Origin: a phage
Direction: 5' to 3' (one strand)
Sequence record: PX418213.1
DNA: 64,000 nucleotides
Part shown: piece by piece, positions 9,591-64,000 of the stretch
How the letters are laid out: each line of letters opens with the position of its first letter
Position numbering within the stretch: position 1 is the first letter of the stretch
Notes under the pieces: model-generated
Databases searched by the model: none
Told to the model about the DNA's origin: nothing
Seen by the model: the letters and a program-made list of their open reading frames with translations, nothing else
Program-made: the position numbers and the translations under genes

Positions 9591-9600
9591 ATAAATGTAT

Positions 9601-9629: not shown

Positions 9630-9659
9630 ATTTATATAAATTAATGAGAGGGTTGCAAA

Positions 9660-9932
9660 GTGAAAAAGATAAATATAAGTACACTTAAACCTTTCCCATA
9701 TATCGGACAGCCTCTTATACTTATGTGGGAGGAGAAGATTAATGGAGAAAAGTATTCTAAAATTAGAAGTGGGTATAAGCTGATTTCACTTCATTACGAA
9801 AAAGAAATATTAACAGCTGAAATATACTCTCCATTGTCAGATAGGCTAGTAAAAACCACGTATTTGCATCTCTGCAAAAATTTTACATGGCACGGATCCA
9901 CTAGACAGCCCACGTACTATGAGGCAGAATAA
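9660..9932 (+). CDS. hypothetical protein (90 aa, GTG start)
   Basis: ORF track; stop overlaps the ligase start (TAAATG). Confidence 0.4.
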   Translation: MKKINISTLKPFPYIGQPLILMWEEKINGEKYSKIRSGYKLISLHYEKEILTAEIYSPLSDRLVKTTYLHLCKNFTWHGSTRQPTYYEAE

Positions 9933-11106: not shown

Positions 11107-11886
11107 ATGAAAATCGAAATTCCAACACAATGTCCCTCTTGTGGTTCTAAGCTAGATCTTGTCAACGGACAATTATTCTGTCGGAATAAGTCCAACTGTC
11201 CAGCGCAATCAAGTAAGTTAATTGAGAACTTCTGTTCAAAAATGAAGTTAAAGGGCTTTGGCCCAAAAACTATTGAGAAGCTGGAGCTGACGAAGATTTC
11301 AGAACTATTTTACCTAACCGAAGAAGATTTGGTTAGAGCCGTGGGTAGCAAGGTTGCCGCTAAGTTAATTAGCGAATTAAATACTAAAGTTCGCGGAGAC
11401 ATTGACTTTGGTTCAGTTCTCGGTTCTTTAGGAATCCCTCTAATTGGAGAGGTTGCAGCAAAGAAATTATCCCAAAATTGCACTAGCTTCCACGATGTGA
11501 AGGCTGACGGCAAGGCTGGAGAAAACTATAAAGCCTGGCTAAATTCCCCACAAGGCAAGGATGTTATCGAACTACCGTGGAAATTCTCAACTGGTATTAA
11601 GGGCACTAAAGCTAATATTATCATTACGGATGAATTAGTTGCCCGGCCAAATGGAATCACGGTATGTATTACCGGATCTTTGCAAGATTTTGCAAATAGA
11701 ACGGATGCAACAAACTATTTAGAAAGTCTAGGATATACGGTTAAGAAATCCGTTACCAAAGACGTTAAATACCTAATCTGTGAGGATGAATCAAAACGTT
11801 CTTCCTCATCTTATAAGAAAGCCGAAACGAATGGGATAGAAATCCTGTCGATTAAAGAACTATTGGAGAAAAATAATAATGTCTAA
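11107..11886 (+). CDS. NAD-dependent DNA ligase, C-terminal ORF (Zn finger, HhH, BRCT-like)
   Basis: CPSCGSKLD...CRNKSNC zinc-finger pattern; BRCT-like ITGSLQDF segment; ATG 11107 preceded by AAGGAAGA. Confidence 0.6.
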   Translation: MKIEIPTQCPSCGSKLDLVNGQLFCRNKSNCPAQSSKLIENFCSKMKLKGFGPKTIEKLELTKISELFYLTEEDLVRAVGSKVAAKLISELNTKVRGDIDFGSVLGSLGIPLIGEVAAKKLSQNCTSFHDVKADGKAGENYKAWLNSPQGKDVIELPWKFSTGIKGTKANIIITDELVARPNGITVCITGSLQDFANRTDATNYLESLGYTVKKSVTKDVKYLICEDESKRSSSSYKKAETNGIEILSIKELLEKNNNV

Positions 11887-12646
11887 ACTGAACTGGAACG
11901 TAGAAGGTGTAACCGAGTCTCTGAAAGCAAAAGCCACTGCTCTGGGTGTTGCTGTAATCTCTCAAGAACAAGTAGCTGCTATCGCTGCTGAACTGGCCGC
12001 TGAAACTGGCAAAGATGTTACTGCTCGCTCTGTTGGCTCTAAACTGCGTAAAGAAGGTTTTGAAGTACAGAAAGCTAACGAAGTACAGAAATCCCCGTGG
12101 ACTCCTGAGCAGGAAGCTGAACTGGTTGATTTCCTGAACGCTCATGCTGGTCAGTATACCTATGCTGAGATCGCTGCTGCTGTAGCTGGTGGTCAGTTCG
12201 GTGCTAAACAGGTACAGGGTAAGATTCTGAGTCTGGAAATGACCGCTTCTGTTAAACCAACCGAAAAAGCTGCTGCTGTTCGTTCCTTCACTCCGGATGA
12301 AGAAACTGATTTTGTTAATCAGGTTGTTGCTGGTGCTACTATTGAAGCTATCGCTGCTCACTTCGGTCGCAATATTAAGCAGATCCGCGGTAAAGCTCTG
12401 AGTCTGCTTCGTGAAGGTCGTATCGCTGCTATGCCAGTACAGGAAACTTCAAGTGCTAAAACTCGTGAAGATCTGTTAGAAGGTCTGGATCTGGTTAACA
12501 TGACTGTTGCTGAGATCGCTGAGAAAACTGGTAAGTCTGAGCGCGGTGTTAAATCTATGCTGTCTCGTCGTGGTCTGGTTGCTAAGGACTATGATGGTGC
12601 CGCTAAGCGTGCTAAACTGGATGCAAAAGCTGCGGCTGCTGAATAA
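11879..12646 (+). CDS. putative DNA-binding protein with four tandem HTH-like repeats
   Basis: Four internal repeats of the form (T/Y)xAEIAxxxGxxxxxVxxKxLSL..G; host-optimal codon usage suggests high expression. Confidence 0.4.
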   Translation: MSKLNWNVEGVTESLKAKATALGVAVISQEQVAAIAAELAAETGKDVTARSVGSKLRKEGFEVQKANEVQKSPWTPEQEAELVDFLNAHAGQYTYAEIAAAVAGGQFGAKQVQGKILSLEMTASVKPTEKAAAVRSFTPDEETDFVNQVVAGATIEAIAAHFGRNIKQIRGKALSLLREGRIAAMPVQETSSAKTREDLLEGLDLVNMTVAEIAEKTGKSERGVKSMLSRRGLVAKDYDGAAKRAKLDAKAAAAE

Positions 12647-19777: not shown

Positions 19778-20062
19778 ATGCTTACAGAGCCTGATGCTCA
19801 CCAATTATTGGTCGGTTCCTCATTCATTTTGAATGAATCAACAATAGTTGATAATCCAAATAAATTGTCTAATAGACAACTGGCAGAATATCTAGGAATT
19901 TTAAGTCTACGAAATTATGCCGAATACAAGTTTACAAACGATCCTAGTTTGGACATACAATATGTTCCAGTATGGATACCACGTTTAGTAATCGACATTA
20001 ACCCACTAATCGCAATTAACAAATCGAAATTAATCTTTAAAGAGGAAATAAAATATGGCTAA
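19778..20062 (+). CDS. hypothetical protein (94 aa)
   Basis: ORF track; weak ribosome-binding site. Confidence 0.3.
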   Translation: MLTEPDAHQLLVGSSFILNESTIVDNPNKLSNRQLAEYLGILSLRNYAEYKFTNDPSLDIQYVPVWIPRLVIDINPLIAINKSKLIFKEEIKYG

Positions 20063-20828
20063 GTCTTGGGGCGAAACTACTGGCGGTTCTAACGATAAAA
20101 TCGAATTCCTGAAGTTCAACAACGGTATCACTCGTGTTCGTATCGTTTCTGGTGTTCTTCCACGTTATGTTTATTGGCTGACTAATAAAGACGGTAACGC
20201 AGCTCCTTTCGAGTGTCTCCGTTTTAACCGTGACAAAGAGAGCTTTGTTCGTGGTAAAGCTGATCCGGTTCATGAGATGGGCTTCTTCGAGAAAGAGCTG
20301 GATAAAGATGGTAATCGTGTTCCGCTGAAACCGAAGAAAAACTATATCGCTTTTGTTATCGACCGTTCTGATAACAAACTGAAAGTAATGGAAGTCAAGG
20401 CTACTATTCTGAAAGGCATCCAGTCTATCATGAAGCAGTTGAGCCTGGCAACTCCATTTGATATTGATATTTCTATCGAGAAAAAAGGTAAAGGTTTCGA
20501 TACTGAGTATGATGTACAGCAGATTGCTGCTATGCAGTTCCAGATTAAGCTGCAAGATCCTAACAGTGCGGAATCCAAGCAATATGCTGCGGATGTAGAT
20601 CTGATCGGTGAAGCTATGTGTGATGAAGATGGCGACATCATTAAGTTCGAAAAAGTTCCTTCTCTGGAACAAACCTATCCGGTTCCTACCTATGAAGAGC
20701 AGAAAGAAGCAATTCTAGCCTTCATGGAGGGTCGTGAGAATAAAGATGATGATGCCAAATCTGGTAATAGCAATGCAGGCTCCCAGAAAGGTATTGACTC
20801 AGAAGCTGCAAGCGATCTGGACGACTAA
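20055..20828 (+). CDS. putative ssDNA-binding protein
   Basis: Strong AAAGAGGAAA site; highly-expressed-type codon usage; acidic C-terminal tail EAASDLDD as in SSB-type proteins; no diagnostic motif, so tentative. Confidence 0.35.
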   Translation: MAKSWGETTGGSNDKIEFLKFNNGITRVRIVSGVLPRYVYWLTNKDGNAAPFECLRFNRDKESFVRGKADPVHEMGFFEKELDKDGNRVPLKPKKNYIAFVIDRSDNKLKVMEVKATILKGIQSIMKQLSLATPFDIDISIEKKGKGFDTEYDVQQIAAMQFQIKLQDPNSAESKQYAADVDLIGEAMCDEDGDIIKFEKVPSLEQTYPVPTYEEQKEAILAFMEGRENKDDDAKSGNSNAGSQKGIDSEAASDLDD

Positions 20829-44658: not shown

Positions 44659-45351
44659 TTAAACGGCAGCGTAAGCACCAGATACAACGCCATTATTAAA
44701 GTAACGTTGCAGGTTAACACGCTGAGTAACGTAGTATGCATCACGCTGTTTACCAGCTTGGCGCTCACGTTCAACAGTAACAGCACGCTGACGTGGCATT
44801 ACGAAGTTATCTTTATAAACAATAACTGCGAACTCTTTATCAGCCGCTTTAGCTGGGAAGTACTCAGAAACTACAACCGGCAGACCGTAAATACGACCAA
44901 CTTGACCTTGCAGTTTAACAGCATCATTACCAACCTGGGAAACATCCTGCCATTCTTCATCTTCCAGCAGATCGTAGTAAGCATCCATAGATACAATCAG
45001 TACCAGTTTGCTCAGCTTCAGGCCATGACGGCCCAGTTTACGACGCAGTTTAGAGATAGTTTTAGCAGTTACCATAACAGAACCATCAGCTTTAGCTTCG
45101 GTAGTAACTTTAGCACTATCTTCACTAGCAAGAGTCAGCAGACCTTTCGGTTTACCAGAACCATCACCAGTCATGAAAGCTTCTTCGATAGAAACAGCAT
45201 GTGCTTCAATCAGACGCTTACGCAGCAGCGGCAGCAGGGAGAAGATTGCATCTTCTTCAGTTTCATCAGTAATAAAGGACTTAGCAGCCAGTTTGTAGGT
45301 CTTAAACGTCACGAATGATACGCTGAGAGAAGATAGTTTCATAGCTTTCAC
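44659..45351 (-). CDS. major capsid protein (HK97 fold), downstream reading-frame segment
   Basis: MCP-like C-terminal sequence GLPVVVSEYF; begins in a different frame from the upstream delta-domain ORF. Confidence 0.55.
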   Translation of the reverse strand: MKAMKLSSLSVSFVTFKTYKLAAKSFITDETEEDAIFSLLPLLRKRLIEAHAVSIEEAFMTGDGSGKPKGLLTLASEDSAKVTTEAKADGSVMVTAKTISKLRRKLGRHGLKLSKLVLIVSMDAYYDLLEDEEWQDVSQVGNDAVKLQGQVGRIYGLPVVVSEYFPAKAADKEFAVIVYKDNFVMPRQRAVTVERERQAGKQRDAYYVTQRVNLQRYFNNGVVSGAYAAV

Positions 45352-45862
45352 TAGAAACTTCTACAGAAGAAGACTGATTCACTGCTTTAAGGTGATTCTG
45401 ACCATGTTCAGTTTCGAATACGCCTTTTTCCATTACATAGGACAACAGAACCAGTTTTTCTACTTCGTCTTCAAAGTTTTCCTGAGTACCGTACAGTGCT
45501 TTAGCAACACTATCACCAACGAAGGAACGACCTTCACGAGCTGTTAGCAGAGATTTGATTTCGTCCTGAAGACCAACAATAGTTTCCTGCTGTTTTTCTA
45601 CGGTTTGTGCAAACAGTTCTGCACTCTTCTTAGATTTCTCATCCAGCGACTTAACCAGTTCCAGAGCCTCTTCCAGACGCTTACGATCTTCGCCAACTGC
45701 TTTAGAAACCAGGTCATTCATACGAGCCAGTTCTTTTTCTTCCTGCTCTTTACGCATACGTTCAGCTTCCTGAGCTTTCTGAGCAGCGGTCAGACCTTCC
45801 AGAGATTTAGCCAGATCACCCAGACCAAGTTCTTCTTTCAGCTTATTAATATCAATAGTCAT
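45302..45862 (-). CDS. major capsid protein precursor, N-terminal scaffolding (delta) domain segment
   Basis: Coiled-coil-rich 186 aa ORF directly after the protease gene; ends at TAA 45302 in a frame offset by one from the downstream MCP segment. Confidence 0.5.
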   Translation of the reverse strand: MTIDINKLKEELGLGDLAKSLEGLTAAQKAQEAERMRKEQEEKELARMNDLVSKAVGEDRKRLEEALELVKSLDEKSKKSAELFAQTVEKQQETIVGLQDEIKSLLTAREGRSFVGDSVAKALYGTQENFEDEVEKLVLLSYVMEKGVFETEHGQNHLKAVNQSSSVEVSSESYETIFSQRIIRDV

Positions 45863-52998: not shown

Positions 52999-53027
52999 TT
53001 GCTTTCATCCCTCTATTTTGCTATAAT
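52999..53027 (+). promoter_or_regulatory. sigma70 promoter, N25 type, for the lipoprotein gene
   Basis: TTGCTT, 17 nt, TATAAT, then tagattcataaatt leader nearly identical to the 7359-7400 promoter. Confidence 0.6.
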
Positions 53028-53058
53028 AGATTCATAAATTAGAAATGGAGAGATAAAT

Positions 53059-53325
53059 ATGAAAAAGTTTGTGATTGCACTAGTTGCCGCAGTTATGTTA
53101 TCTGGTTGTGCACCTGCTCCCAAACCATTTTGTACGGGATTTGTAAAATCTTTTGGTGGTGCGGGAGAAGAACATTACGGTCTCAAGGTTCAAAAAGTTC
53201 GTATTAAGGGAGACCGCTTTCCAGTAGTACAGCTCCGTACTAAGTTTGGATGGTGGGATCTCAGTCAGTTTGACCTTAAATATGGTGATTGTAAATTTAA
53301 ACTAGAACAATCTAATTACTTGTAA
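53059..53325 (+). CDS. llp: lipoprotein, lytic-conversion (receptor-blocking) type
   Basis: Signal peptide with lipobox MLSGC; small size; divergent from the receptor-binding protein gene. Confidence 0.55.
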   Translation: MKKFVIALVAAVMLSGCAPAPKPFCTGFVKSFGGAGEEHYGLKVQKVRIKGDRFPVVQLRTKFGWWDLSQFDLKYGDCKFKLEQSNYL

Positions 53326-53501
53326 TTAGTATAAAACAAAAAGACATCCAAGTAAACTAAATTTTTTATTTCTTGGATGGTGTACTGGCAGAAAACACTA
53401 TGCAAGAAAAGTAGAAGTCCTTCTAGGAAGTCACAAGCATGGTTGGTTATGCACAAATTTTAAAATATTTCAAAATACCACATTTACGGGGCACGAAAGA
53501 T

Positions 53502-53630
53502 ATGTCAAACAAAAGAAAGAACAGACGCGGAGAAGTGTATGAAGCGTGGATTAATATTTACGGATTTGGTTTTGTATTATTCCTAATCTTCGTGGGTTTT
53601 TGGTTAGCAGCTATGGCGGGGTGGATTTAA
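53502..53630 (+). CDS. small single-pass membrane protein (array member 1)
   Basis: MSNKRKNRRGEVYEAWINIYGFGFVLFLIFVGFWLAAMAGWI; ORF track version starts at 53439. Confidence 0.35.
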   Translation: MSNKRKNRRGEVYEAWINIYGFGFVLFLIFVGFWLAAMAGWI

Positions 53631-53785
53631 TGGAATGGGTAACTATTGGCATATTCGTCTTATTGATACTTCTCTTCGTAGGCTTACGTGTAATAGATAC
53701 CTCTGTAACCCAAACAGAAATTAAATTAATGCAGTTGAGTAATAGATTATCTAGAATTGAAACTTTATTAGAGGAGCGTAAATAA
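53630..53785 (+). CDS. small single-pass membrane protein (array member 2)
   Basis: MEWVTIGIFVLLILLFVGL...RIETLLEERK; ATG overlaps the previous stop (TAATG); GGGTGGA upstream. Confidence 0.4.
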   Translation: MEWVTIGIFVLLILLFVGLRVIDTSVTQTEIKLMQLSNRLSRIETLLEERK

Positions 53786-53892
53786 TGGAATGGGTAATTA
53801 TTGCACTACTGGGGATTGTGATTATTGGGCAATGTATTTTAGATAATCACCTAGCTAGAATTGAAACCTTATTATTGGAGAAACGTAAATGA
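53785..53892 (+). CDS. small single-pass membrane protein (array member 3, 35 aa, absent from the ORF track)
   Basis: MEWVIIALLGIVIIGQCILDNHLARIETLLLEKRK, a clear paralog of member 2; TAATG overlap; GAGGAG upstream. Confidence 0.4.
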   Translation: MEWVIIALLGIVIIGQCILDNHLARIETLLLEKRK

Positions 53893-54083
53893 TGGAAGTG
53901 ACAGTTACACTAATAGTAATATTAGTCTGGGTAATCCTCATTGTCTCTCGTATCGTGTACCTCCGCCTAAAAACTCTAGAAGCTCAGGTGAAACAACAAC
54001 AAGTTATTCTAGAAAAGCTAGTACTACTGCAACGTTGTGATAGCACCCGTATTCTGCAAATTGAGAGGGAATTAGATGTTTAG
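53889..54083 (+). CDS. small single-pass membrane protein (array member 4)
   Basis: MMEVTVTLIVILVWVILIVSRIVYLRLKTLEAQ...; ATGA overlap with member 3. Confidence 0.4.
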   Translation: MMEVTVTLIVILVWVILIVSRIVYLRLKTLEAQVKQQQVILEKLVLLQRCDSTRILQIERELDV

Positions 54084-54321
54084 TATTATAATTGCTTTTA
54101 TTATCGGGATACTCGCGGGGGTTTTCGGAACGACTGCGGCAATCAACAAGCATCGTAAATATATTGCGGGAGTGACGCGGGAAATTGCGGAAAGGGAGCG
54201 GAAGTTTGACGAGAAACGTGCGGAGTTTGAGCGGGAGTGGTCGGATGGATCTCGGGCGTCGCGGAAGAGATTCCGTGAGTTCAGACCAGAACACAGGTTT
54301 GATGACCCTTCTATGCGCTAA
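54076..54321 (+). CDS. small membrane-anchored protein with charged C-terminal tail (array member 5)
   Basis: MFSIIIAFIIGILAGVFGTTAAI then Arg/Glu-rich tail; overlaps member 4. Confidence 0.4.
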   Translation: MFSIIIAFIIGILAGVFGTTAAINKHRKYIAGVTREIAERERKFDEKRAEFEREWSDGSRASRKRFREFRPEHRFDDPSMR

Positions 54322-54432
54322 TTTGACTTTTGCCAAATTTCATAAGATTACACATGGAGGTGTGTCCAGTGGGTTGGGAGAGAATACTTAGTCTGCTAAC
54401 CGCCACCCCCGTTACTATTACCATGCTAAATG

Positions 54433-54471
54433 TTTCACCCTGCAACCATTTTAATTGCAAGGTGAAACAAT
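54433..54471. other. hairpin between convergent genes
   Basis: 14-bp stem with one mismatch, gtttcaccctgcaa / ttgcaaggtgaaac. Confidence 0.3.
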
Positions 54472-54485
54472 TTCAACTTTAATTA

Positions 54486-55262
54486 TTACGCGACTTTTAG
54501 TTTCTCAATATATTGTTGCGGGCTGCAACTATATTCTGCGCGTTCTTCTTCTGTCATACTTTCCCAACATAGTTTTAAGCGATCGGCTAGGAACTGATAA
54601 TCATTATCATCCTCGAGCGATTCATCAATAAAGGTTCCGCCTATCAATGCCACGCCGATTGATAGAATATCATTAACGGCTTGCGCGTCCAACGTTTTAA
54701 ATCCGTATGATGCCGCCGCTGATAATACACCTTTATGATCATCAATCATTGTAAAATCAGCGTTCGGGTATAGCTGTTTAAATAATCCAAAGTAGTAACT
54801 TTTATATACTGCGTCCTTGCTGTGGTATATTTCGCTAACCTTATCAGCTTCAAAATATTTGTGCAGTGTATCGCGGGAAAATACACGGATATTACTATCC
54901 CCACGCCCGCGCAAGCCTTGCTTGCGTAGGAAGTAATAATCTGATTTGCTCATCAGGCGAGCGGTACAAATAAGGTTTAAGGTATTTGCGTCATTCATGC
55001 ATTGGCGCATATATTCAACTAATGGTAATAAGGTGTCTTGCATTATTAAATGATGCTTGCAAGCCTCGTTTTTGTATTTATTTAAATCTAAATTCCCGTC
55101 GCTATCAAAGCAAGGCGCTACGCGATGGAATGAGTTAACGATAGTGCCATCAAGATCCCAAATCATGACGCGGGAAACATGAGGAAAGCTACGGGTAATA
55201 TTCGTTTTAACTTGATTCATTTTGTTACGTTCTCCATTAAAGGGATGTAGTTTATCCAGCAT
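54486..55262 (-). CDS. dmp: HAD-family phosphatase, likely deoxynucleoside 5'-monophosphatase (dmp-like)
   Basis: HAD motif I VMIWDLDGTIV; sits in a pre-early-like block next to an A1-like gene. Confidence 0.5.
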   Translation of the reverse strand: MLDKLHPFNGERNKMNQVKTNITRSFPHVSRVMIWDLDGTIVNSFHRVAPCFDSDGNLDLNKYKNEACKHHLIMQDTLLPLVEYMRQCMNDANTLNLICTARLMSKSDYYFLRKQGLRGRGDSNIRVFSRDTLHKYFEADKVSEIYHSKDAVYKSYYFGLFKQLYPNADFTMIDDHKGVLSAAASYGFKTLDAQAVNDILSIGVALIGGTFIDESLEDDNDYQFLADRLKLCWESMTEEERAEYSCSPQQYIEKLKVA

Positions 55263-55300
55263 TGCCCGCTATCTATCAGCGGGCAATAATAAATCAACTA

Positions 55301-55693
55301 TTAAAGACCAAAGGCCAGCGCATCAGCGATAAAACTAATATCTTCTCCTGATACGTGGGAACGAATGCCCGCGCATGTAAATACCTTCGCGCTCATTAGT
55401 TGATCATCAAGACAAGCCGGACAAGGCGCGACAACTGCAAACGCTAGGCCGGATTTCACGGCGTCGATGATAATCGTTTCCTGCTTCACCGTATCAACAT
55501 AAACGCCTGCGGCCTTGATGTGACTACTTGCGCGGCCTTGCGTATAGGCGAAAGTCGTGATCTGCAGCGCCTCGTTAAACTCGAGTAAATCATCAACAAC
55601 GTGACCGGCCTCAACGTGATACCGCTCCCCATTAGAATAAACCAGAACGATTGAGGATTGAGCGCGATCGAATGGAATATTTTGCTTTTTCAT
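55301..55693 (-). CDS. hypothetical protein (130 aa)
   Basis: ORF track; contains HVE and PCPAC motifs but with spacing atypical for cytidine deaminases. Confidence 0.35.
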   Translation of the reverse strand: MKKQNIPFDRAQSSIVLVYSNGERYHVEAGHVVDDLLEFNEALQITTFAYTQGRASSHIKAAGVYVDTVKQETIIIDAVKSGLAFAVVAPCPACLDDQLMSAKVFTCAGIRSHVSGEDISFIADALAFGL

Positions 55694-55760
55694 AGTTATA
55701 AAACTCCAATTAATTTAATAAGGGAAATAAGCGAGGTATATACCCCGCTTATAAATTTAA

Positions 55761-57446
55761 TTATGCGAAAAACTTACCGTTTTTAAAGTCAATCAAAGTG
55801 CGCTGGCCGTTCGCATAGGTAATTAAATGCGTTTGCGTCCAGCTTGACGCGCCAACGTTATAGCCCATATCTAGGGAACCAGCAACGCCCGCCGTATATA
55901 CGCCGCCGTAAATGCTGGCGGTGTGAGTGTGCCCCGTGTTTAACTTGCCCAATTTCTTAAACTGCTTAGGATTGCCACGGCTGCCGTTTATGCCGTTGTG
56001 ACCGTGTACGCCGCATTCAATGCCTGCAATCTTGAAAGATTGATCAGTCGTTAGGAAAATCGCGTTAAACTCGCAACCTGCGACGGTACGCAGCGCATAA
56101 TCTAGCACGTTGAAAGTATCATCCTGCCTTGCAATAGCTGCATAGATAGCGGCATTCAGGCGGTGATATAATTCCGCGTTTGCTGGATCGTCTTTAATGT
56201 TAGCATTGCGATCATCAAGCCAACGGGATAGCGCCAGATCGTGGTTTGATTCCACAATGATTGTTTGACTAAAATCACGTTCCATTGATTCCAGCACGCG
56301 CCCGGTATCGATGAGATCATCCAGAACCTTATCACGTCCGGCTGCATACTGTTTCGCTAGAAATACACCAGAAGCGCGGTTATGGTGGTTGCGCGATGTA
56401 AAATCATGCACGTCATGCACAAATTGATATTTTGGCTTGAGAATATCCACTAGCCCATAAGTATCACCGTGCCCCCATGACGCTGCGGCGCACTCCTCAT
56501 CAAGTTTTTCGGCGTGTATGTCGCCATATTGCAAGCCTAAAACATGCCCCGACGTTTCAAAGCATCCGGTGGGAGTAGCGCAAACGTTCAGATCGTAAAA
56601 CATGCCGCTTTCGTCCATCGTTTCAAGCTGGCGCACAAAAAACTCACCGTCTTCGTCGAACTCAACAATCAGCGCACCGAAATTATGCAATGCTTCCGCT
56701 TTCTGTCCTGCTTTCTGCTGAATGTAGTTTTTAAGCGTTGCCGTTCCGGTGGAATACATGCGGCGCACTACTTCACCTTTGAGAGCTGGCACGCTTTCGG
56801 CGGTGATTTTAGCGTGACCAATTGCCAGACCTTCCAGATTAAGCGCGGTTGCAGTTTCTGCGAATCCAGACAGCGGATAGTCTGCGGTGGGCAAAACATT
56901 AATTTCAGCCATGAAAGCGAAACGGCGGTTATTTAAAAACACGTTTTTACTGCAAATATATTTATCAAACGCGGAATCATATTTGATTCCGTCTGCGCCT
57001 TCCCCATTCTGGAATCCGTTTTTATTATAAATATACTTGCTAACCAGCAAATCAGCGCCGATAAATTGGGCGTATTGCTCCAACGCGGCTAAAAAGTTTT
57101 TATGCGGGAAAGTATTATTTTGAATCGACGTTAGAATAAAGCGTTTACCTTGTTTTACTTCCCACTGTTCCACCGTGCTAGAAATAATTCCAGCCGCTTC
57201 GGGGCGCTCGTCGTTTTTAATGGCTTTTGCTACTTTCGCCGCTTTTGGTTTCGCTGGTTTATTTGCTTCCAGCCAATCACAAATCGCGGTGGAGTGTTTT
57301 GCAGTATCGTAAACCGCTTTCGAAATATCGTCACAAACTTCCAGCTTGGTGGCGCGCAGACGTTTACCATAGAAATTAAAGTCAGCGGCCAGCTTCAGGA
57401 TAACGGTTTGCTTTTCTGCGGAAATAATCATAGTAATAAGCTCCAT
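55761..57446 (-). CDS. A1: A1-like pre-early protein with metallophosphoesterase domain
   Basis: 561 aa; calcineurin-like motifs YGDIH, ESNHD, GHxH-like GHTH; adjacent to an A2-like gene. Confidence 0.55.
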   Translation of the reverse strand: MELITMIISAEKQTVILKLAADFNFYGKRLRATKLEVCDDISKAVYDTAKHSTAICDWLEANKPAKPKAAKVAKAIKNDERPEAAGIISSTVEQWEVKQGKRFILTSIQNNTFPHKNFLAALEQYAQFIGADLLVSKYIYNKNGFQNGEGADGIKYDSAFDKYICSKNVFLNNRRFAFMAEINVLPTADYPLSGFAETATALNLEGLAIGHAKITAESVPALKGEVVRRMYSTGTATLKNYIQQKAGQKAEALHNFGALIVEFDEDGEFFVRQLETMDESGMFYDLNVCATPTGCFETSGHVLGLQYGDIHAEKLDEECAAASWGHGDTYGLVDILKPKYQFVHDVHDFTSRNHHNRASGVFLAKQYAAGRDKVLDDLIDTGRVLESMERDFSQTIIVESNHDLALSRWLDDRNANIKDDPANAELYHRLNAAIYAAIARQDDTFNVLDYALRTVAGCEFNAIFLTTDQSFKIAGIECGVHGHNGINGSRGNPKQFKKLGKLNTGHTHTASIYGGVYTAGVAGSLDMGYNVGASSWTQTHLITYANGQRTLIDFKNGKFFA

Positions 57447-57527
57447 TAAAGGGATAAAAAACGTTTGTTATTGGCAAATGTTGCCAAATATAACGCCTCC
57501 AATAATAGGCGTTATAATTTGCAATAT

Positions 57528-57725
57528 TTAACTAATAGGCATCAGGCTAGAACTAACACCGCAAACAACGGCGGCAATAAAACAAATCAGGCCCAAACGC
57601 TTCGCTAACTTAGATTTGCGTTTAAAATAATACGAATCTAAATCATTTTGAAAATATGCGAACAATAACGAGGCCGCCACAATAAATAGGCCTAAAATTA
57701 AGGATTCAGTAGGAAAGAAAATCAT
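57528..57725 (-). CDS. small membrane protein (two predicted TM segments)
   Basis: MIFFPTESLILGLFIVAASLLFAYF...LICFIAAVVCGV; ORF track version 57528..57773. Confidence 0.3.
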   Translation of the reverse strand: MIFFPTESLILGLFIVAASLLFAYFQNDLDSYYFKRKSKLAKRLGLICFIAAVVCGVSSSLMPIS

Positions 57726-57782
57726 TTTAATAACTCCAATTAAAGGGAAATTATAGTGGGGAATAATCCCCACTAATTAAAT

Positions 57783-58190
57783 TTATTCACCTGCGGCTTG
57801 TTTTACCTCATCGGCAACGCCTAACAACTGCGCCACGGCGTCCAGCGTTTCCAGCTTCGCGCTTTCAAGGCTTGCCAGATCATCGGCGTCCTTGATAATG
57901 CCGGAATCGATAGCGTGTTTTGCAATTACTCGCACATAGTGAGCTTTACGGATTGAGCTGCCGCCGCCAACCTTGCGCGGCTTGTCGCTTTTTTGGTAGG
58001 CTTTCGCGCTGGTCAATTTCGAACGAACTGACACGGGAGAAGCCGCACCAACTGCTTTCGCGATCTCTTTCAAGCCGTCGCTATTTGCGAATTCTAGCCC
58101 GTTTTCATTGATTAACTGCTGATACATGGAAACAGCCTGCTGGGTGTTTTCTTCGTTCCAGGAAAATTTTGCGGCTTTAACGTTAGTCAT
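57783..58190 (-). CDS. A2: A2-like pre-early DNA-binding protein (135 aa)
   Basis: Size and position immediately upstream of the A1-like gene; basic C-terminal half. Confidence 0.45.
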   Translation of the reverse strand: MTNVKAAKFSWNEENTQQAVSMYQQLINENGLEFANSDGLKEIAKAVGAASPVSVRSKLTSAKAYQKSDKPRKVGGGSSIRKAHYVRVIAKHAIDSGIIKDADDLASLESAKLETLDAVAQLLGVADEVKQAAGE

Positions 58191-58290
58191 GGTAAAAACT
58201 CCAATTAATTTAATTTAAGGGATTAAATGATTAACTAATGTTAATCGTTATATGCCCCGAACTACTGGGGCATATAAAGTTAACACTAAT

Positions 58291-58542
58291 TTATAAAACG
58301 GCTTCCCATTTTTCGTTGCGTTGAACAACCTTTACAACGTCGCCGGATTTAACGCGAACGTTATAAATCGGCTTGCCGTTGTTACTGCGCTCATTTTCAG
58401 CGTATACCGCGTCGATTGTATCGAACGGCATGAGCGCCGCGCCTTTAATACGTTCGGCTTTTCCGGTCAATTCATCCGTTTTAGTAACGAAAGGAATAAA
58501 AACGGATTGACCAACTTTCGGCGCATTAATAACGTTTTTCAT
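58291..58542 (-). CDS. hypothetical small protein (83 aa)
   Basis: ORF track; first gene of the minus-strand pre-early-like unit. Confidence 0.4.
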   Translation of the reverse strand: MKNVINAPKVGQSVFIPFVTKTDELTGKAERIKGAALMPFDTIDAVYAENERSNNGKPIYNVRVKSGDVVKVVQRNEKWEAVL

Positions 58543-58774
58543 GGTATAAACTCCAAGTTATTTGTGGATTGTTCCGCATTATCTGCTACTTTCTAGCAGA
58601 CAATAAGAAAAAATCCGCTAGCCATTATAAAATCAATTTAAGGAACTCCACGCGGGCCGCTATATCCCAGTTAGGGGGCGGGATGCATTATGGTAAGCAC
58701 CGACCGTCAGATTTTATCAAGTTATCGCTCTTATCGAACTGGGTACATCTTAAAGCCTATCGGCTAGGGTGTCA

Positions 58775-58948
58775 AATAGTTTTTTCGTTTTCTTTTAAGT
58801 TAGGATCTTCCCAACTGAATAGCATTTCGCAAAATATTTTCCCATCTTTATGATGGTAAGCTATTTCACTTCCGTGGTTAGCACAAAAATTAATCACCGC
58901 TTCAGCTTGTTCTACCGTGATATTGTTAGCCGTTTCTTTGATTTTCAT
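58775..58948 (-). CDS. hypothetical small protein (57 aa, absent from the ORF track)
   Basis: ATG at 58948 preceded by AAGGAA at 8-nt spacing; translation MKIKETANNITVEQAEAVINFCANHGSEIAYHHKDGKIFCEMLFSWEDPNLKENEKTI. Confidence 0.3.
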
Positions 58949-59373
58949 ATCGTCGATTCCTTATAATGTAATAAGTTTACCGCCGATAGGCTTTAAGATA
59001 TACCCAATTTTTAAAGAGCGCGGCGGTAAACTTCCCGCCGTGTAGTTCGTCATTGCCGCCCTACGAGATAAATAATAACAAACAACGAAAAAGGCGCAAC
59101 CTTATATTTGTAAAGAAATGTAAAGACAAACGCCACCGGACACCGTGCGGCGACCTGGGCGCAGCGCATTAAAATTAAAAGAAACGGGCGCGCGAATAAC
59201 ACAAAACATAGCAGATAGGCAAGTAATTTTTTCACTTATATTTGCTTTGGGGGTATTGACAAAATCTAAAAAGCTCGTGGCAGCGATAAACGACGTGGCC
59301 CCTTATGATTGGATGGCCAAAAACTTTATTGCGTTCTGGGGCGTTTTAGGCGCATTCTAGCCTTGTTGATAAC

Positions 59374-59834
59374 TTATCCACAGAAGCAAAAATGAAATTT
59401 TCCTAGTTATCCACTTGACTTTTATTTTCCAGTGGATAACTACTTATTTTATGAAATAAATTAATTGACTTTTATTTGCTAGTATGCATCGGAAAGATAG
59501 CAGACTAATAATTGCTAGGATGATGATCATGCTGGTGGATTGTAACGGCCTGAATTATTAGCAGACTGTTAATCAGGGAAAATCTCATTAGCCAACTAAC
59601 TATTTCATGATATATAATATACTTATAAATTAATGAGAAATAATAACTATAAGAAATCATCATCATTATAATAATAACTATAAGAAATCATCATCATTAT
59701 AATAATAACTATAAGAAACTATCGGCATAAGTGAGAACCACTATCATTTAAGTTATCCACAACGTTATCCACAGCACAAAATAATTTGACACGATAGGCG
59801 GCGATATGAGGGCTTTTACACAGACTTATCCACA
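59374..59834. promoter_or_regulatory. cluster of DnaA-box-like 9-mers in an AT-rich intergenic region
   Basis: TTATCCACA at 59374, 59744, 59755, 59826; TTATCCACT / AGTGGATAA inverted pair at 59407 and 59431. Confidence 0.55.
59640..59727. repeat. tandem direct repeat, 31-bp unit, about 2.6 copies
   Basis: ataataactataagaaatcatcatcattata repeated with period 31. Confidence 0.7.
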
Positions 59835-59860
59835 GGTTATCCTACTGTATAAATATACAG
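59821..59860. repeat. left arm of a 40-bp inverted repeat containing a DnaA box
   Basis: cagacttatccacaggttatcctactgtataaatatacag; reverse complement of 63118-63157 with one mismatch. Confidence 0.7.
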
Positions 59861-59956
59861 GGTAAAAAGGCAGTGTTAACGACTGCAATCAATTTTAGGC
59901 GGCCTAAAACGCTTTCTAACGAGCTAAACGCTGCGGGGTAATATTAAAGTAAAGAC

Positions 59957-60003
59957 CCAACACGTCGCCCTGATGGCTTCAGTGCGTCGCCCTGGTGGCT
60001 TCG
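59957..60003. repeat. tandem direct repeat, about 22-bp unit, two copies
   Basis: cgtcgccctgatggcttc / cgtcgccctggtggcttc. Confidence 0.5.
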
Positions 60004-60149
60004 CCGTGTTTTGCTCGTTACTACACCGCTGCGCGGTTAGCATAAAATTAGGCGTTAGGCAAGAAAAATAAAAAAGTAAAATAATCTTTGCCTATGCTAG
60101 AAAATTACCTTTATCATTCACTCACCGATTAACGAGAGGGGCCGAACAA

Positions 60150-61136
60150 ATGAGGCTATATAAACCAGATAACGCAACCGTCTTAAAAGGTGCGCTGCGT
60201 AACCTGCTGGACGGTAGCAGAACAACCAGCATTAAGCATTTTGTTTTCAATATTGAAACTATTCATCAAAACTTTTTTGATGATTATGATGCTTATAATA
60301 TGAATAGTTTTCTACCGTTATATAAGCAAGGGGCAACGCTTGTTTTATATAATCAGGATTATCAATTACTTACTAGTCGGGGGCCGGATACTGATTTCAT
60401 AATAGTAAAAGGCAACACAGTAAAAGCCTATGATACTGGGGCGGGCCTAGAAGTTTTTTCAATAGAAAACTATGAGGCCAATGATAATGATCTTTATGAC
60501 GTAGAAAATTTTCTCGATTCATTTTGGCGTTATTTATCAGTTGGCTGGAATCGGTCGGATTCTGATGGGTATCGTTTTGCGGCTATAATGGCCTTTGATG
60601 ATAACGGTAATTTTTTGCTACCGTCGGAGTTATATAATCGGGTATATGAAGGCGATATTGTTGACGCCGGATTTTCTTTCGAAAGGGAAGAAAGTATTGG
60701 CAATATAGAAAAACATGTTGTAAATTCTAACACTAAAAACGTTCACACTCAAACTACTGAAAACAAAGGAAAAAATACCATGACCAAGATTGCTAACATC
60801 GTTGCCGCTAATAAATCCGCCGTTGTAAACGCTGCAAAACTGGAAGCGGGTAAAATTGCACTAACTCAAATCACGAAAGTAGCGGCTAAAAAAGCACCGT
60901 TCATGATCAGAGGCTATATTGATACGCCGATTGGTCGCGTAGTGATCGCTAACCTGCTGAGTGTAGCGGTTGACCAGTACGCCCCGAGTAACCAGAAAGC
61001 GAAAGCGGTAGCAAGCGCGGCAATGGAAGCGGCTATGTTAGAAATGGTGCAATCTTTTAACATCGCTGAGATGATCGATGAAATGGTAAAAGGTATCGAT
61101 ATTTCTACTTTTACCAATAACACCGAAAACGAGTAA
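60150..61136 (+). CDS. hypothetical protein (328 aa; possibly two fused domains or genes)
   Basis: ORF track; internal ATG at about 60780 preceded by AAGGAAAA starts an Ala/Val-rich C-terminal part. Confidence 0.4.
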   Translation: MRLYKPDNATVLKGALRNLLDGSRTTSIKHFVFNIETIHQNFFDDYDAYNMNSFLPLYKQGATLVLYNQDYQLLTSRGPDTDFIIVKGNTVKAYDTGAGLEVFSIENYEANDNDLYDVENFLDSFWRYLSVGWNRSDSDGYRFAAIMAFDDNGNFLLPSELYNRVYEGDIVDAGFSFEREESIGNIEKHVVNSNTKNVHTQTTENKGKNTMTKIANIVAANKSAVVNAAKLEAGKIALTQITKVAAKKAPFMIRGYIDTPIGRVVIANLLSVAVDQYAPSNQKAKAVASAAMEAAMLEMVQSFNIAEMIDEMVKGIDISTFTNNTENE

Positions 61137-61253
61137 TAAATAATCTAATGTAAAGTTTTGTAAAGGTCGCCTTTTATGGTGGCCTTTTTTGTTATAATGC
61201 CTTTACACCGTTCGAGGACGGTTGAAATTTTCCCAAAATTTTGGAGGCTTAAA

Positions 61254-61484
61254 ATGGTTGCTTTTTCTTCTGCTAGTCATCTTTTCACTGGAAAAGGCTG
61301 GGTATCAAATCGCTGGATCATTCAAGAAATGGTGCAAGAGTACGGCATCGCTAAAACTTATACTACCATACAGGCGCTTTATGATAATGATCAGATTGAT
61401 CAGCAAACGGCGGGCTTTTTACTGGATACCCTGAAGGCGGAGCACTGTACCAAAAAACAAGCGGCCAAAATTATTTTAATGTAA
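61254..61484 (+). CDS. hypothetical small protein (76 aa)
   Basis: ATG 61254 preceded by GGAGG; ORF track start 61176 overlaps the upstream intergenic region. Confidence 0.35.
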   Translation: MVAFSSASHLFTGKGWVSNRWIIQEMVQEYGIAKTYTTIQALYDNDQIDQQTAGFLLDTLKAEHCTKKQAAKIILM

Positions 61485-61492
61485 TCAATAAC

Positions 61493-61511
61493 GGGGGATA
61501 TAATATCCCCC
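61493..61511. other. perfect palindromic hairpin
   Basis: gggggatataatatccccc. Confidence 0.4.
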
Positions 61512-61533
61512 ACTAACTAGGGGAGTATTACAA

Positions 61534-61713
61534 ATGGTTATTTTTCGAGCTTTTTTAGCGGGTATCTTGGGCGCTATTCTTACTCTTTTTGCTACCGCTT
61601 ACGGTATCCAAGATTATTGCGGCTTAGTAGTCACAAAACCTATGGTTACTATTGGCGCGGGTATCGCTGTATTTTCTTATCTGCTGGGCTGCATGACTAG
61701 TAAAGGAGAATAA
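61534..61713 (+). CDS. small membrane protein (59 aa, absent from the ORF track)
   Basis: ATG preceded by GGGGAG; two hydrophobic segments (FLAGILGAILTLFATAY and VTIGAGIAVFSYLLG). Confidence 0.3.
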   Translation: MVIFRAFLAGILGAILTLFATAYGIQDYCGLVVTKPMVTIGAGIAVFSYLLGCMTSKGE

Positions 61714-61715
61714 AA

Positions 61716-61928
61716 ATGATCCGCAACGTTTCTCTTGCACGTTCGAAAGGCTTTGCGCTGGTGGATGCTAACACGTTCGAGCGTCCTGATTGTAAAATTG
61801 AATATGTAGCACGTAATAAAAATGCCTTTCGTGTTACTGAAAAGAAATTCGACAAGCGCGGCAACGTGATCCTTGAAACGGTCAGGCACTTTGCCACCTT
61901 TTACGCTGCGTTTCGTGGGGTACTATGA
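61716..61928 (+). CDS. hypothetical small protein (70 aa)
   Basis: ATG preceded by AAAGGAG. Confidence 0.45.
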   Translation: MIRNVSLARSKGFALVDANTFERPDCKIEYVARNKNAFRVTEKKFDKRGNVILETVRHFATFYAAFRGVL

Positions 61929-62056
61929 AAAGCGTTATTGTTGTTCTCCTTGCAATGGCTGGCGGTTTTATCGCCACCTTATTTAGGAATGACCCCGTTT
62001 CGCTGGGGATCTTTATGCTTTTATCTGGATACCTGATCGGGAGGTTATGCAAATGA
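61925..62056 (+). CDS. small membrane protein (43 aa, absent from the ORF track)
   Basis: ATGA overlap with the previous stop; hydrophobic MKSVIVVLLAMAGGFIATLF. Confidence 0.3.
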   Translation: MKSVIVVLLAMAGGFIATLFRNDPVSLGIFMLLSGYLIGRLCK

Positions 62057-62397
62057 TCATTTACGAGGGCAATCGTTTTGTTGCTAACTGCCGCCCGGCA
62101 TTGTTAGCAAACTATTTAAACCAGCTTTCGCCAGCTTATAAGGGCGTTATTAATATTTATGAGGGCAAGGCGCATTATAAAATCAATGCGGTCGTTGCCC
62201 GTGAACTAGCGTTTCAATTTTTAACCTTCGCATCTTGCGACGTTCAGGTAATGGGTGAGGCATTAATCGCAGAAAATGAGGATGATTTTATTAATATTTT
62301 TCGCAAGATATGCACCGAGCGCCTGATAATGAAAGGCGCGTATATTCAATCCACGGCTGATAGTATTGAAACAGCGTTTCGAAAGGTGGCGCAATGA
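62047..62397 (+). CDS. hypothetical protein (116 aa)
   Basis: ORF track; overlapping start and stop with neighbours. Confidence 0.4.
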   Translation: MQMIIYEGNRFVANCRPALLANYLNQLSPAYKGVINIYEGKAHYKINAVVARELAFQFLTFASCDVQVMGEALIAENEDDFINIFRKICTERLIMKGAYIQSTADSIETAFRKVAQ

Positions 62398-62609
62398 GTG
62401 AAATTACTTGGAATATGTTGCTGAAGGTTAAACGGGTAAAATTAACGCAGGATTTATGGGGAGTAGGTAAAACTGGGGATGTATTCACTGTGTTTAAAGA
62501 CGCCCATCATAGGTTTATAAGAAGGAATAACAATACCGGTACAGCGTTTTATTTAATTGATTTAATCAAATTACATGGTGAGGATATTTTCAAACTAGAA
62601 TATGAGTAA
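62394..62609 (+). CDS. hypothetical protein (71 aa)
   Basis: ORF track; ATGA overlap with the previous gene. Confidence 0.4.
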   Translation: MSEITWNMLLKVKRVKLTQDLWGVGKTGDVFTVFKDAHHRFIRRNNNTGTAFYLIDLIKLHGEDIFKLEYE

Positions 62610-62664
62610 CTATATAATTTTGGCGTATTGCAATGAGATAGCCAACTAATAACGGAGCGTTATT

Positions 62665-62859
62665 ATGAGCAATAAAATTGTTGTAACCAAAACTACTACG
62701 ATGGTAGACGTTTTTTACGTGCCCAATACGCCGGAGAATCGACAAGCGGTTGAGCGTGGGGAATATGATAAAGTGATCTATGATCACGATGGTTATTATC
62801 AGTATTTGGTGGATTCATACGGGGAGGAGGAAAAGATCACGCATCAACTACCTGACTAA
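62665..62859 (+). CDS. hypothetical protein (64 aa)
   Basis: ORF track; last gene of the plus-strand cassette. Confidence 0.4.
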   Translation: MSNKIVVTKTTTMVDVFYVPNTPENRQAVERGEYDKVIYDHDGYYQYLVDSYGEEEKITHQLPD

Positions 62860-63117
62860 TAATCACGGGGCGCAACTATCCGGGAGTGCCCCCAATTTTC
62901 AAACGATAATCATTCTCATTTGACCGCGCTCGCGATGGTTAGCCTGCTAATGGTTCGGGTGTTACGTGTCGCCTTGTGTGATCGTTAGCGTGCTAACTAA
63001 TTTTCAAGCCTCCTCCAATTTTGCCCTTGTTTTAGTATCTCCACCAAAATAAAACGCGTTAGAATGCGTTTGAGAGCGTTTTAGCGGTATATTAGAATTA
63101 TTCACTACATAGGAATA

Positions 63118-63157
63118 CTGTATATTTATACAGTAGGATAAGCTGTGGATAAGTCTG
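63118..63157. repeat. right arm of the 40-bp inverted repeat, with DnaA-box-like sites
   Basis: ctgtatatttatacagtaggataagctgtggataagtctg; further TGTGGATAA at 63207-63215. Confidence 0.7.
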
Positions 63158-63250
63158 TTAATAACGCCTCAAAATGGCTAGGATTCTGTCAAGTCAAATC
63201 GTGCTGTTAATAAGTCTGTGGATAACTTAAATAACAGTGTTTCTCACTTC

Positions 63251-63500
63251 CGTTCTTAAATGAGAATCATTATCATTTGCATTTCACTATCTAACTAATA
63301 ATCATTCCACTTTTTAAATGAGAATCGTTCCACTTCCTGAATAATTTTCGTTCCACTTTCTAAATGATAATCGTTATCATTTGCATTCCTCTTTCTAAAT
63401 GCGAATCATTCCACTTCTTAAATGAGAATCGTTTCACTTTTTAAATGAGAATTATTATCATTCTCATTCCGCTTTTTAAATGAGAATGATTCTTATTATC
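63251..63500. repeat. array of about seven direct repeats with a Fur-box-like palindromic core
   Basis: TTAAATGAGAATC(A/G)TT(A/C/T) units, for example 63256-63274 and 63360-63378; each matches the Fur consensus GATAATGATAATCATTATC at about 15 of 19 positions; an isolated copy at 62905-62920. Confidence 0.6.
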
Positions 63501-63510
63501 ATTCGTATTT

Positions 63511-63534
63511 AGCGCAGGGCAATTGCCCTGCGCT
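63511..63534. other. perfect 24-bp palindrome
   Basis: agcgcagggcaattgccctgcgct followed by TTTT; possible terminator or dimeric protein site. Confidence 0.5.
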
Positions 63535-63537
63535 TTT

Positions 63538-63760
63538 GTGCAAATCCGACATTGCTCCACGGGTGTTACGTGCGGGCGTGTATGTGCGAATCCGACAATT
63601 TTTGGTAGTGTGCAAATCCGACTCGAAAAATTTTTATAGTGTGCAAATCCGACAATGAATTTTTCTAGAAACTCCAGCAATCTCGAACTGCGCATCAATC
63701 CTGTGGAGTATGTGCAAATCCGACATGGTTTTTCTAGGATTAAGATGTGCGAATCCGACA
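63538..63760. repeat. six dispersed direct repeats of a 14-bp motif GTGC(A/G)AATCCGAC(A/T)
   Basis: Copies at 63538, 63584, 63609, 63641, 63712, 63747, spaced 25-71 bp, all in the same orientation. Confidence 0.7.
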
Positions 63761-64000
63761 AGATTTTTGTGACTTCGATGAGAGGGTGTGTGATTGTGTG
63801 AGTTTGAGGAGAAGTTGAGAGAGCGAGTGAAACTTGGGGGAACTGCGAGAGGGGCGCATGTTTGGTGCAGGGCACCTGATTTGCGGGGATTTTGGGGAAG
63901 AGTTGAGAAGATTTGGGTTAATTTGAGATTAGGGGAGATAAAGTAAAATTTTATTAGCAAAATGGGGCAAAATAGCTTGACAAGTGAAAATTTCTGTGGC

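Follow-up and report, generated by a model that had tools for sequence, protein, structure and literature searches.

Small conserved genes and raised third-position G+C in a predicted T5-type pre-early operon

The left-hand pre-early operon of phage T5 (NC_005859, 124-5022) carries dmp and T5.002 to T5.009 within the first-step-transfer (FST) DNA, which is located in a long terminal direct repeat. Two of its genes, A1 and A2, are essential and are the hallmark of the Demerecviridae. A1 alone is necessary and sufficient for the degradation of host DNA by T5, and it is also needed for second-step transfer (bioRxiv 10.64898/2026.04.02.716235). T5 Hdi (T5.008) is a host division inhibitor that targets FtsZ. 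For the relative Bas33, transcriptome and proteome data are available, and ten pre-early products were seen by proteomics (PMC13250531). Here we describe positions 54486-58948 of a 64,000-nt stretch of phage DNA (PX418213.1; "the window" below), a block in which an earlier, sequence-only reading had recognised dmp-, A1- and A2-like genes interleaved with four uncharacterised small open reading frames (ORFs). We compare this block with the T5 operon, and ask whether the small ORFs are genes, what they might do, and why the block differs in composition from the rest of the window.

The predicted left-hand operon and its place in the genome

The block itself is already known: it closely reproduces the part of phage T5 that has been studied most. 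Its gene order on the minus strand, established by tblastn with 17 T5 pre-early proteins, is dmp, 002, A1, 005, A2, 007, a 58-residue ORF and a T5.009-like ORF. The position relative to the start of the repeat, the strand and the gene order are the same as in T5, and the proteins share 84-96% of their residues with their T5 counterparts. The orthologues of T5 Dmp, A1 and A2 that surround the small ORFs (95%, 96% and 96% identical, respectively) carry the FST hallmark in the order and on the strand seen in T5, so the earlier description of a T5-type pre-early block was correct. We consider it very likely that 54486-58948 is the left-hand pre-early (FST) operon of a T5-like Tequintavirus, on the minus strand and in the right-repeat copy; this degree of confidence is meant for our explanation as a whole, that is, for this identity jointly with the accessory-factor and codon-usage views given below.

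A megablast search with 53000-60200 matched 550 T5-like phage records, the best of which, at ~93% identity, are the Salmonella phages SP33 and GSP044 (Tequintavirus). In an alignment to the left repeat of T5, T5 position 1 falls at 54363 of the window and T5 position 10217 at 64000, the T5 repeat ending at 10219. Since these boundaries map onto the T5 terminal repeat, 54363-64000 would be the right terminal repeat, with the FST DNA in its second copy, and the window would stop at the genome end. On this alignment, the window comprises the final 64 kb of a T5-like Tequintavirus, and its end is the physical right end of the genome. The dmp stop codon at 54486 lies ~120 nt into the repeat, in keeping with the location of T5-type FST genes in a long terminal direct repeat. 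The repeat-rich, non-coding injection-stop region with its paired DnaA boxes is also present and aligns to T5 9317-10217. As in T5, a promoter region, a DnaA-box region and repeats of the injection-stop type follow the operon in the same arrangement. To the left of the repeat are a receptor-binding protein, an Llp-type lipoprotein and some small membrane ORFs.

The first gene, dmp (54486-55220, minus strand), encodes a deoxynucleoside-5'-monophosphatase of 244 residues, the orthologue of T5.001 (phrog_415), with a DLDGT motif at residue 22 and a GGAG site before the ATG at 55220. It is followed by the orthologue of T5.002, a 130-residue protein (55301-55693; 84% identical) with conserved His26, Glu28, Pro90, Cys91, Cys94 and Cys107. 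A1 (55761-57431; phrog_1745), the 556-residue orthologue of T5.004, is predicted to be a DNase of the metallophosphatase type. It contains motif-like strings (GDIH303, HDVHD339, SNHD395, HGHNG476, GHTH500) in the order expected for the metal-binding motifs of such enzymes (DxH, GD, GNH[D/E], H, GH, GxH). A1 showed no match to Pfam Metallophos and no sequence match in the PDB, and we have taken its assignment as a calcineurin-like phosphoesterase from a published structural prediction (bioRxiv 10.64898/2026.04.02.716235). Next come the orthologue of T5.005 (57528-57725; 92% identical; phrog_4820, 'membrane protein'), 65 residues long with two predicted transmembrane segments; the DNA-binding protein A2 (57783-58190; phrog_1725), the orthologue of T5.006; and the orthologue of T5.007 (58291-58542; 87% identical), a basic protein of 83 residues predicted to form a small all-beta barrel and belonging to Pfam DUF7177. 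The 58-residue ORF (58772/58775-58948) occupies the slot of hdi; it belongs to a rare family and has no homology to Hdi. The T5.009-like ORF of 30 residues (58961-59053) matches T5.009 with 96% identity over 28 residues in tblastn. In the gap between A2 and 005, at 57754-57775, there is a GC-rich palindromic hairpin of 9 bp, TAGTGGGGA-ATAA-TCCCCACTA, which lacks a T-run and may be an element of RNA stability or processing.

The locus differs from T5 in the absence of T5.003 and of the HNH endonuclease gene hegG, and in the replacement of the interior of hdi by an unrelated coding sequence of 58 codons. In tblastn with the T5 pre-early proteins, T5.003, hegG and T5.016 had no counterpart in the window; these are the rarest pre-early genes of the family (bioRxiv 10.64898/2026.04.02.716235). 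G+C content is 43.5% over the block and 41.6% over the dmp-to-007 span of T5.

By analogy with T5, the operon would be read leftward by host RNA polymerase from sigma-70 promoters in the control region at 58.6-59.9 kb, within a few minutes and with only ~8% of the genome inside the cell. Pre-early timing, with these genes switched on before the rest of the genome enters, is what we infer from their orthology. Dmp would dephosphorylate the released deoxynucleoside monophosphates, a role described in the T5 literature and carried over here by orthology at 95-96% identity. An identical copy of the operon is expected at the left end of the genome, beyond the window.

The small genes and what they might do

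The four small ORFs lie on the minus strand at the positions where they had been listed. Several lines of evidence indicate that all four, 002, 005, 007 and the 58-residue ORF, are real protein genes. For the first three, the ratio of non-synonymous to synonymous substitution rates (dN/dS), calculated against T5, DaisyDussoix and GSP044, is 0.06-0.07 (002), 0.07-0.11 (005) and 0.10-0.16 (007). Across all six T5-homologous genes the range is 0.03-0.16, and the small ORFs do not stand apart from dmp, A1 and A2. All six genes also share an unusually uniform (CCC)TTTAAT(T)GGAG element, located 8-9 nt ahead of the ATG, with starts at 55220, 55693, 57431, 57725, 58190 and 58542 (minus strand). This shared TTAAT(T)GGAG element settles where dmp, A1 and 005 really start; homology and ribosome-binding sites place those of dmp and A1 at 55220 and 57431, and not at the longest ORFs (55262 and 57446). 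Full-length 002 is present in 439 phage records; for 005 the number is 505. The 007 protein matches DUF7177 (PF23801) over residues 1-82 of 83 with 142.4 bits (cut-off, 27), and 005 has two hydrophobic segments at residues ~8-24 and ~43-60, its T5 counterpart being annotated as a two-transmembrane protein.

Random ORFs do lengthen with higher G+C, and several antisense ORFs of 99-130 residues inside A1 are clearly spurious, so that the small ORFs could in principle be chance open frames in a GC-richer stretch. Against this stand the low dN/dS values (0.06-0.16), the conserved ribosome sites, the full-length homologues in hundreds of phages with identities down to 33-60%, the Pfam family for 007, and the 5 min delay in latency caused by deletion of 002, 005 or 007 from T5 (bioRxiv 10.64898/2026.04.02.716235). 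For 002, 005 and 007, selection, ribosome sites, homologues and deletion phenotype have already refuted the chance reading, and we give it next to no credence for the set as a whole. The small ORFs could have turned out to be unconserved; instead they are under purifying selection and, for 002 and 005, have hundreds of phage homologues. The description of these ORFs as unannotated holds only in part: T5 and related phages have 002, 005 and 007 annotated as hypothetical proteins, whereas the 58-residue ORF indeed lacks annotation in DT57C, DT571/2, Gostya9 and HK6.

In T5, the 002, 005 and 007 genes have been cloned and are non-toxic (PMC8201957; bioRxiv 10.64898/2026.04.02.716235). T5 lacking 002, 005 and 007, singly or all three, grows normally on E. 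coli F with unchanged virulence; latency is ~5 min longer and burst size larger (bioRxiv 10.64898/2026.04.02.716235). We infer that the three proteins are accessory host-takeover factors, which would tune the timing of infection or act only in particular hosts, and are neither core machinery nor deaminases. It counts against this view that our searches (Pfam, PHROG, NCBIfam, PDB, profile and structure) gave no function for 002, 005, 007 or the 58-residue protein. Public records of HMD-P5, JLBYU43 and vB_Kpn_3 name homologues of 002 'baseplate wedge subunit' and a homologue of 007 'RecT family recombinase'. We found no support for these names, which look like annotation errors.

The sequence-only reading had pointed out that several pre-early activities are still unassigned, and this agrees with the literature: protection from restriction, CRISPR (clustered regularly interspaced short palindromic repeats) and RecBCD is credited to FST genes, but the gene has yet to be assigned (PMC10644984; Davison, bioRxiv 10.1101/866236). 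Davison names T5p007 as a candidate for insensitivity to restriction (bioRxiv 10.1101/866236). The anti-defence candidacy of the small pre-early ORFs is therefore already in print; it is plausible, and our analysis adds no evidence to it. Could 002, 005, 007 or the 58-residue protein be a dedicated anti-defence factor that shields DNA from restriction or CRISPR, or inhibits RecBCD? Besides the attribution of these activities to FST genes and the naming of T5p007 (PMC10644984; bioRxiv 10.1101/866236), the idea is favoured by purifying selection on proteins that are dispensable and non-toxic in the laboratory host, which fits a conditional counter-defence (bioRxiv 10.64898/2026.04.02.716235), and by the synthesis of the small proteins ahead of the entry of most of the genome. 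On the other hand, with net charges of -5 to +3, the small proteins include no strongly acidic DNA mimic, and 002 and 007 are found also in Epseptimavirus, a genus described as generally restriction-sensitive (PMC10644984). Moreover, plaques on E. coli F are still obtained with a T5 mutant that retains no more than A1, A2, hdi and 009 (bioRxiv 10.64898/2026.04.02.716235); whatever protection from RecBCD is required in that host is thus independent of 002, 005 and 007. On balance we regard a dedicated anti-defence role as unlikely.

By sequence, fold or charge, the small proteins do not match the known types of anti-restriction protein, RecBCD inhibitor or inhibitor of uracil-DNA glycosylase (Ocr, ArdA, Gam, gp5.9, Ugi). 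A more daring proposal is that a conserved, dispensable and non-toxic pre-early protein is the very factor that, once expressed, protects T5-type DNA from restriction, CRISPR or RecBCD, with a fold and a mode of action unlike those of known anti-defence proteins. This is a long shot; the most likely candidates for such a factor would be the basic beta-barrel protein 007 and 002 with its Cys and His residues.

The T5.002 family (PHROG 4576) deserves separate discussion, as its motifs had been read as a hint of a deaminase with non-canonical spacing. The protein described here has 130 residues and its T5 counterpart 131; the two are 84% identical, share every conserved residue and show no notable difference. 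Both short motifs of the zinc-dependent cytidine/dCMP deaminase fold (H/CxE ... PCxxC) are indeed present and conserved, namely HVE (His26, Glu28) and PCPAC (Pro90, Cys91, Cys94). Among 22 homologues, His26, Glu28, Pro90, Cys91 and Cys107 are invariant, which implies that these residues matter, and Cys94 is nearly invariant, being missing from P0057. This invariance, and the central place of nucleotide catabolism among T5 pre-early functions, are what speaks for a divergent zinc-dependent cytidine/deoxycytidylate deaminase with an active site made up of HVE and PCPAC.

The features that define the deaminase fold were, however, not found. Glu28 and Pro90 are separated by 61 residues, as compared to ~23-36 in known deaminases. 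Structure prediction, suggested earlier as a check, gave a mostly beta AlphaFold model without a deaminase fold (predicted local distance difference test score, 69.7; predicted template modelling score, 0.60). HVE is in or adjoins the strand formed by residues 24-27 and PCPAC is in a low-confidence loop; the known fold has three layers (alpha/beta/alpha), with both motifs at helix N-termini. There was no deaminase match for the 130-residue protein in Pfam, NCBIfam or the PDB. A profile search against 1.84 billion representative proteins retrieved only the protein's own family and a 50-residue fragment, and thus no sequence-detectable relatives outside T5-like phages. Foldseek against viral models gave only weak matches, all to uncharacterised proteins from phages distantly related to T5, such as AAS21 and DU_PP_V. 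The loss of Cys94 from P0057 adds to these objections. Spacing, predicted fold and the lack of a profile or structure match together rule out a canonical deaminase, and even a divergent one is very improbable. The earlier observation of motifs with unusual spacing was accurate, but the hint of a deaminase did not survive. A metal site formed by the Cys and His residues of the protein is possible.

Composition and codon usage of the pre-early genes

The block had been judged by eye to be richer in G+C than its surroundings, and calculation bears this out: G+C is 43.5% in 54486-58948 and 38.8% in the remainder of the window. Non-overlapping windows of equal length have a mean of 38.7% (s.d., 0.96%) and a maximum of 40.7%, so that the block exceeds every one of them. 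The rise is uneven, with its peak in 002, A1, A2 and 007 (44-50% G+C), in which G+C at third codon positions (GC3) is 0.45-0.54, compared to a mean of 0.30 in 40 other genes; the rises at first and second codon positions are smaller. Both pre-early operons exceed these 40 genes in GC3 (Mann-Whitney, p=2.7e-5 and 5e-4). The raised G+C is therefore a synonymous-site effect, mainly at third codon positions. T5 itself has the same rise in 002, A1, A2 and 007, but none in the sporadic genes 003 and hegG (GC3, 0.24-0.26) and only a weak one in hdi (0.35).

A possible cause is the supply of tRNAs. There is no tRNA gene within the terminal repeat. As the tRNA genes of the phage are on second-step DNA, pre-early genes would be expected to avoid the A-ending codons that are used by early and especially by late genes. 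We defined phage-tRNA codons as the A-ending codons read by U34-type tRNAs, together with those of tRNA-Ile2 and tRNA-Arg, using the tRNA list of T5. Their share of the respective codon families is 16.8-17.2% in pre-early, 23.4% in early and 27.5% in late genes, and per-gene use is lower in pre-early genes than in early (Mann-Whitney, p=0.0035) or late genes (p=0.0003). AGA makes up none of the 47 Arg codons in the left operon, 20% in early and 32% in late genes (Fisher, p=4e-8). We put at about even the chances that pre-early genes, being translated with host tRNAs alone, avoid phage-tRNA codons (AGA, ATA, ACA, CCA and others). Codon use and tRNA genes are likewise paired by expression class in tRNA-rich phages, and here, too, the use of phage-tRNA codons climbs from the first- to the last-expressed genes. 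T5-like phages would differ in that the tRNA genes are physically absent in the pre-early phase, making the constraint absolute and not kinetic. A third-position effect, graded in step with dependence on phage tRNAs, would give a simple reason why the DNA that enters first differs in composition.

A number of points weigh against the codon-usage explanation. The tRNA set is that of T5 and not of this phage, whose tRNA region lies beyond the window. Two genes of the block, 005 (36% G+C) and the 58-residue ORF (34%), are AT-rich although both are pre-early. An ORF of 81 residues at 54076-54321, outside the repeat, has a GC3 of 0.52, which means that the limits of the GC-rich patch are not exactly those of the FST DNA. 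The genes are not independent of each other, and A1, A2, 002 and 007 could owe a compositional signature to common descent. Lastly, when the codon adaptation index (CAI) was calculated relative to E. coli ribosomal-protein genes, pre-early genes showed no significant increase (p=0.14 and 0.24). We have accordingly dropped host-adapted codon usage as measured by CAI, and claim only the avoidance of phage-tRNA codons.

Some of these observations would suit a different cause of the G+C rise, such as a separate origin of the core pre-early genes, selection for escape from the silencing of AT-rich DNA by H-NS or Rho when it first enters, or GC-biased repair of the duplicated repeat: the unremarkable CAI values, the ~300 bp by which the GC-rich patch runs beyond the repeat into the 81-residue ORF, and the concentration of the rise in the four most conserved genes. 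Such causes do not sit well with an effect that is mainly third-position (GC3 of 0.45-0.54 as opposed to 0.30), or with the graded use of phage-tRNA codons from pre-early through early to late genes. Biased conversion across the whole repeat has the additional difficulty of AT-rich non-coding stretches within that repeat, where G+C goes down to 29-38%. We consider another cause possible but rather less probable than the avoidance of phage-tRNA codons. Two further properties of the DNA were recorded. The observed/expected ratio of 6-bp palindromes is 0.74 in FST DNA and 0.83 elsewhere, a small difference. CAGCAG, counted on one strand only, occurs 0 times in FST DNA and 35 times elsewhere, a difference that we do not interpret.

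The hdi slot, its inverted repeat and neighbouring features

Alignments to T5 and to Kenya-K16 break exactly at 58791-58943, i.e. inside the 58-residue ORF. This ORF has the same start position as hdi and the same flanking inverted-repeat arms, and has no more in common with T5 hdi than the start codon and ~7 codons at the 3' end; the bodies of the two proteins are dissimilar. The 58-residue protein is acidic (pI 5.2), whereas Hdi appears rich in Lys and Arg, as read from its sequence. We considered whether the ORF might be Hdi nonetheless, but BLASTP aligned only nine C-terminal residues (E=0.17), and tblastn with T5 Hdi found nothing in the window; the true Hdi homologue of the Epseptimavirus UTK0009 gives E=6e-19. 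In UTK0009, a homologue 58% identical to the 58-residue protein is encoded directly upstream of Hdi. As the two are carried side by side, the 58-residue gene and hdi are distinct genes. The 58-residue family is rare (12 phage records), but it shows a low ratio of non-synonymous to synonymous differences (pN/pS, 0.07-0.09 against DT57C and HMD-P3) and is preceded by the ribosome site AAGGA. The protein has two Cys and three His residues, and a C-x2-H...H...C pattern is kept in the Epseptimavirus homologue. The ORF appears to be chimeric. Judging from the alignments, this phage lacks an intact hdi and has a rare alternative small gene in the hdi slot.

The slot is bracketed by an inverted repeat on the minus strand, the 5' arm of which (58982-59020) is contained in the T5.009-like ORF, while the 3' arm (58726-58764) overlaps a promoter-like TTGACA-17-TAAGAT sequence at 58775-58747. 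The arms are 39 nt long and 85% complementary in the window. The T5 counterpart is at 4669-4707/4951-4989 (L003), and the repeat is present in T5, DT57C, UTK0009 and 36 of 37 T5-like loci in IMG/VR. Most phages have hdi between the arms, some the 58-residue gene, and UTK0009 both; the two loci with hdi and extra sequence between the arms are the two terminal-repeat copies of one phage genome. The repeat is probably IRA/IRA' of T5 'Repeat Region 1', an identification made from coordinates. According to the account of Wang et al. (2005) cited in bioRxiv 10.1101/866236, IRA/IRA' is a conserved, untranslated DNA repeat of unknown role.

What the present comparison adds is that the repeat brackets a variable cassette of hdi or the 58-residue gene, and that its sequence variation preserves pairing in the sense RNA. 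Over 17 distinct sequences read as the sense transcript, pairing within the 24-bp core amounts to 99.5%. Three of its pairs have compensatory double changes and five vary only via G.U. In the sense orientation there are 19 G.U pairs and two mismatches, in the antisense orientation two G.U pairs and 19 mismatches. The region folds with -99 kcal/mol (z=-7.6). Counted as independent events, there are ~6 wobble changes as compared to two mismatches, plus three compensations. At this level the asymmetry is modest, and the evidence for an RNA helix is therefore suggestive, not decisive. With this reservation, the inverted repeat may act at the RNA level, as a helix bracketing an exchangeable small-gene cassette. 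Such a helix would suggest post-transcriptional control of a toxic pre-early gene. RNase III processing, or control of the toxic hdi cassette, via the repeat is speculation on our part. An Rfam scan of 53000-64000 found no family at the gathering score, and a literature search retrieved no paper on RNase III processing of T5 pre-early RNA and no description of an RNA-level role for a repeat of the IRA/IRA' type.

Beyond the operon lies an AT-rich divergent control region (59360-59860) with several DnaA-box motifs of the TTATCCACA type and a 31-bp tandem repeat at 59639-59731. A second, 132-nt inverted repeat, which also contains TTATCCACA motifs, has arms at 59729-59860 and 63118-63249. These arms are 3.3 kb apart and flank the right-hand pre-early operon, matching the IRC-spacer-IRD/IRD'-spacer-IRC' arrangement of T5 (bioRxiv 10.1101/866236). 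The right-hand operon (60150-62859, plus strand) comprises orthologues of T5.011, 012, 013, 014, 015 (the Ung-dependent nickase) and 017, with 75-93% identity in tblastn. In the place of T5.016 there is an unrelated, AT-rich ORF of 71 residues (62394-62609, plus strand) without a T5 homologue, another variable slot. The injection-stop-signal region at 63257-63766 is densely packed with direct-repeat families (units of 86 nt; five copies of ATGTGCRAATCCGACA) and palindromes.

On the other side of the block, between llp and the repeat, there are three neighbouring single-pass membrane ORFs of 61, 35 and 64 residues (53600-54083, plus strand). Two of them share a C-terminal RIETLL(L)E(E/K)RK sequence and look like tandem paralogues. 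The 81-residue ORF just outside the repeat (54076-54321, plus strand) is also a membrane ORF; it belongs to phrog_6447 and has a weak match to a LapA domain, below the Pfam cut-off. Finally, four ORFs elsewhere in the window (11879-12646, 20055-20828, 44659-45351 and 45302-45862) have CAI values of 0.71-0.79 relative to E. coli ribosomal genes, the window mean being 0.42; they presumably encode very highly expressed phage proteins.

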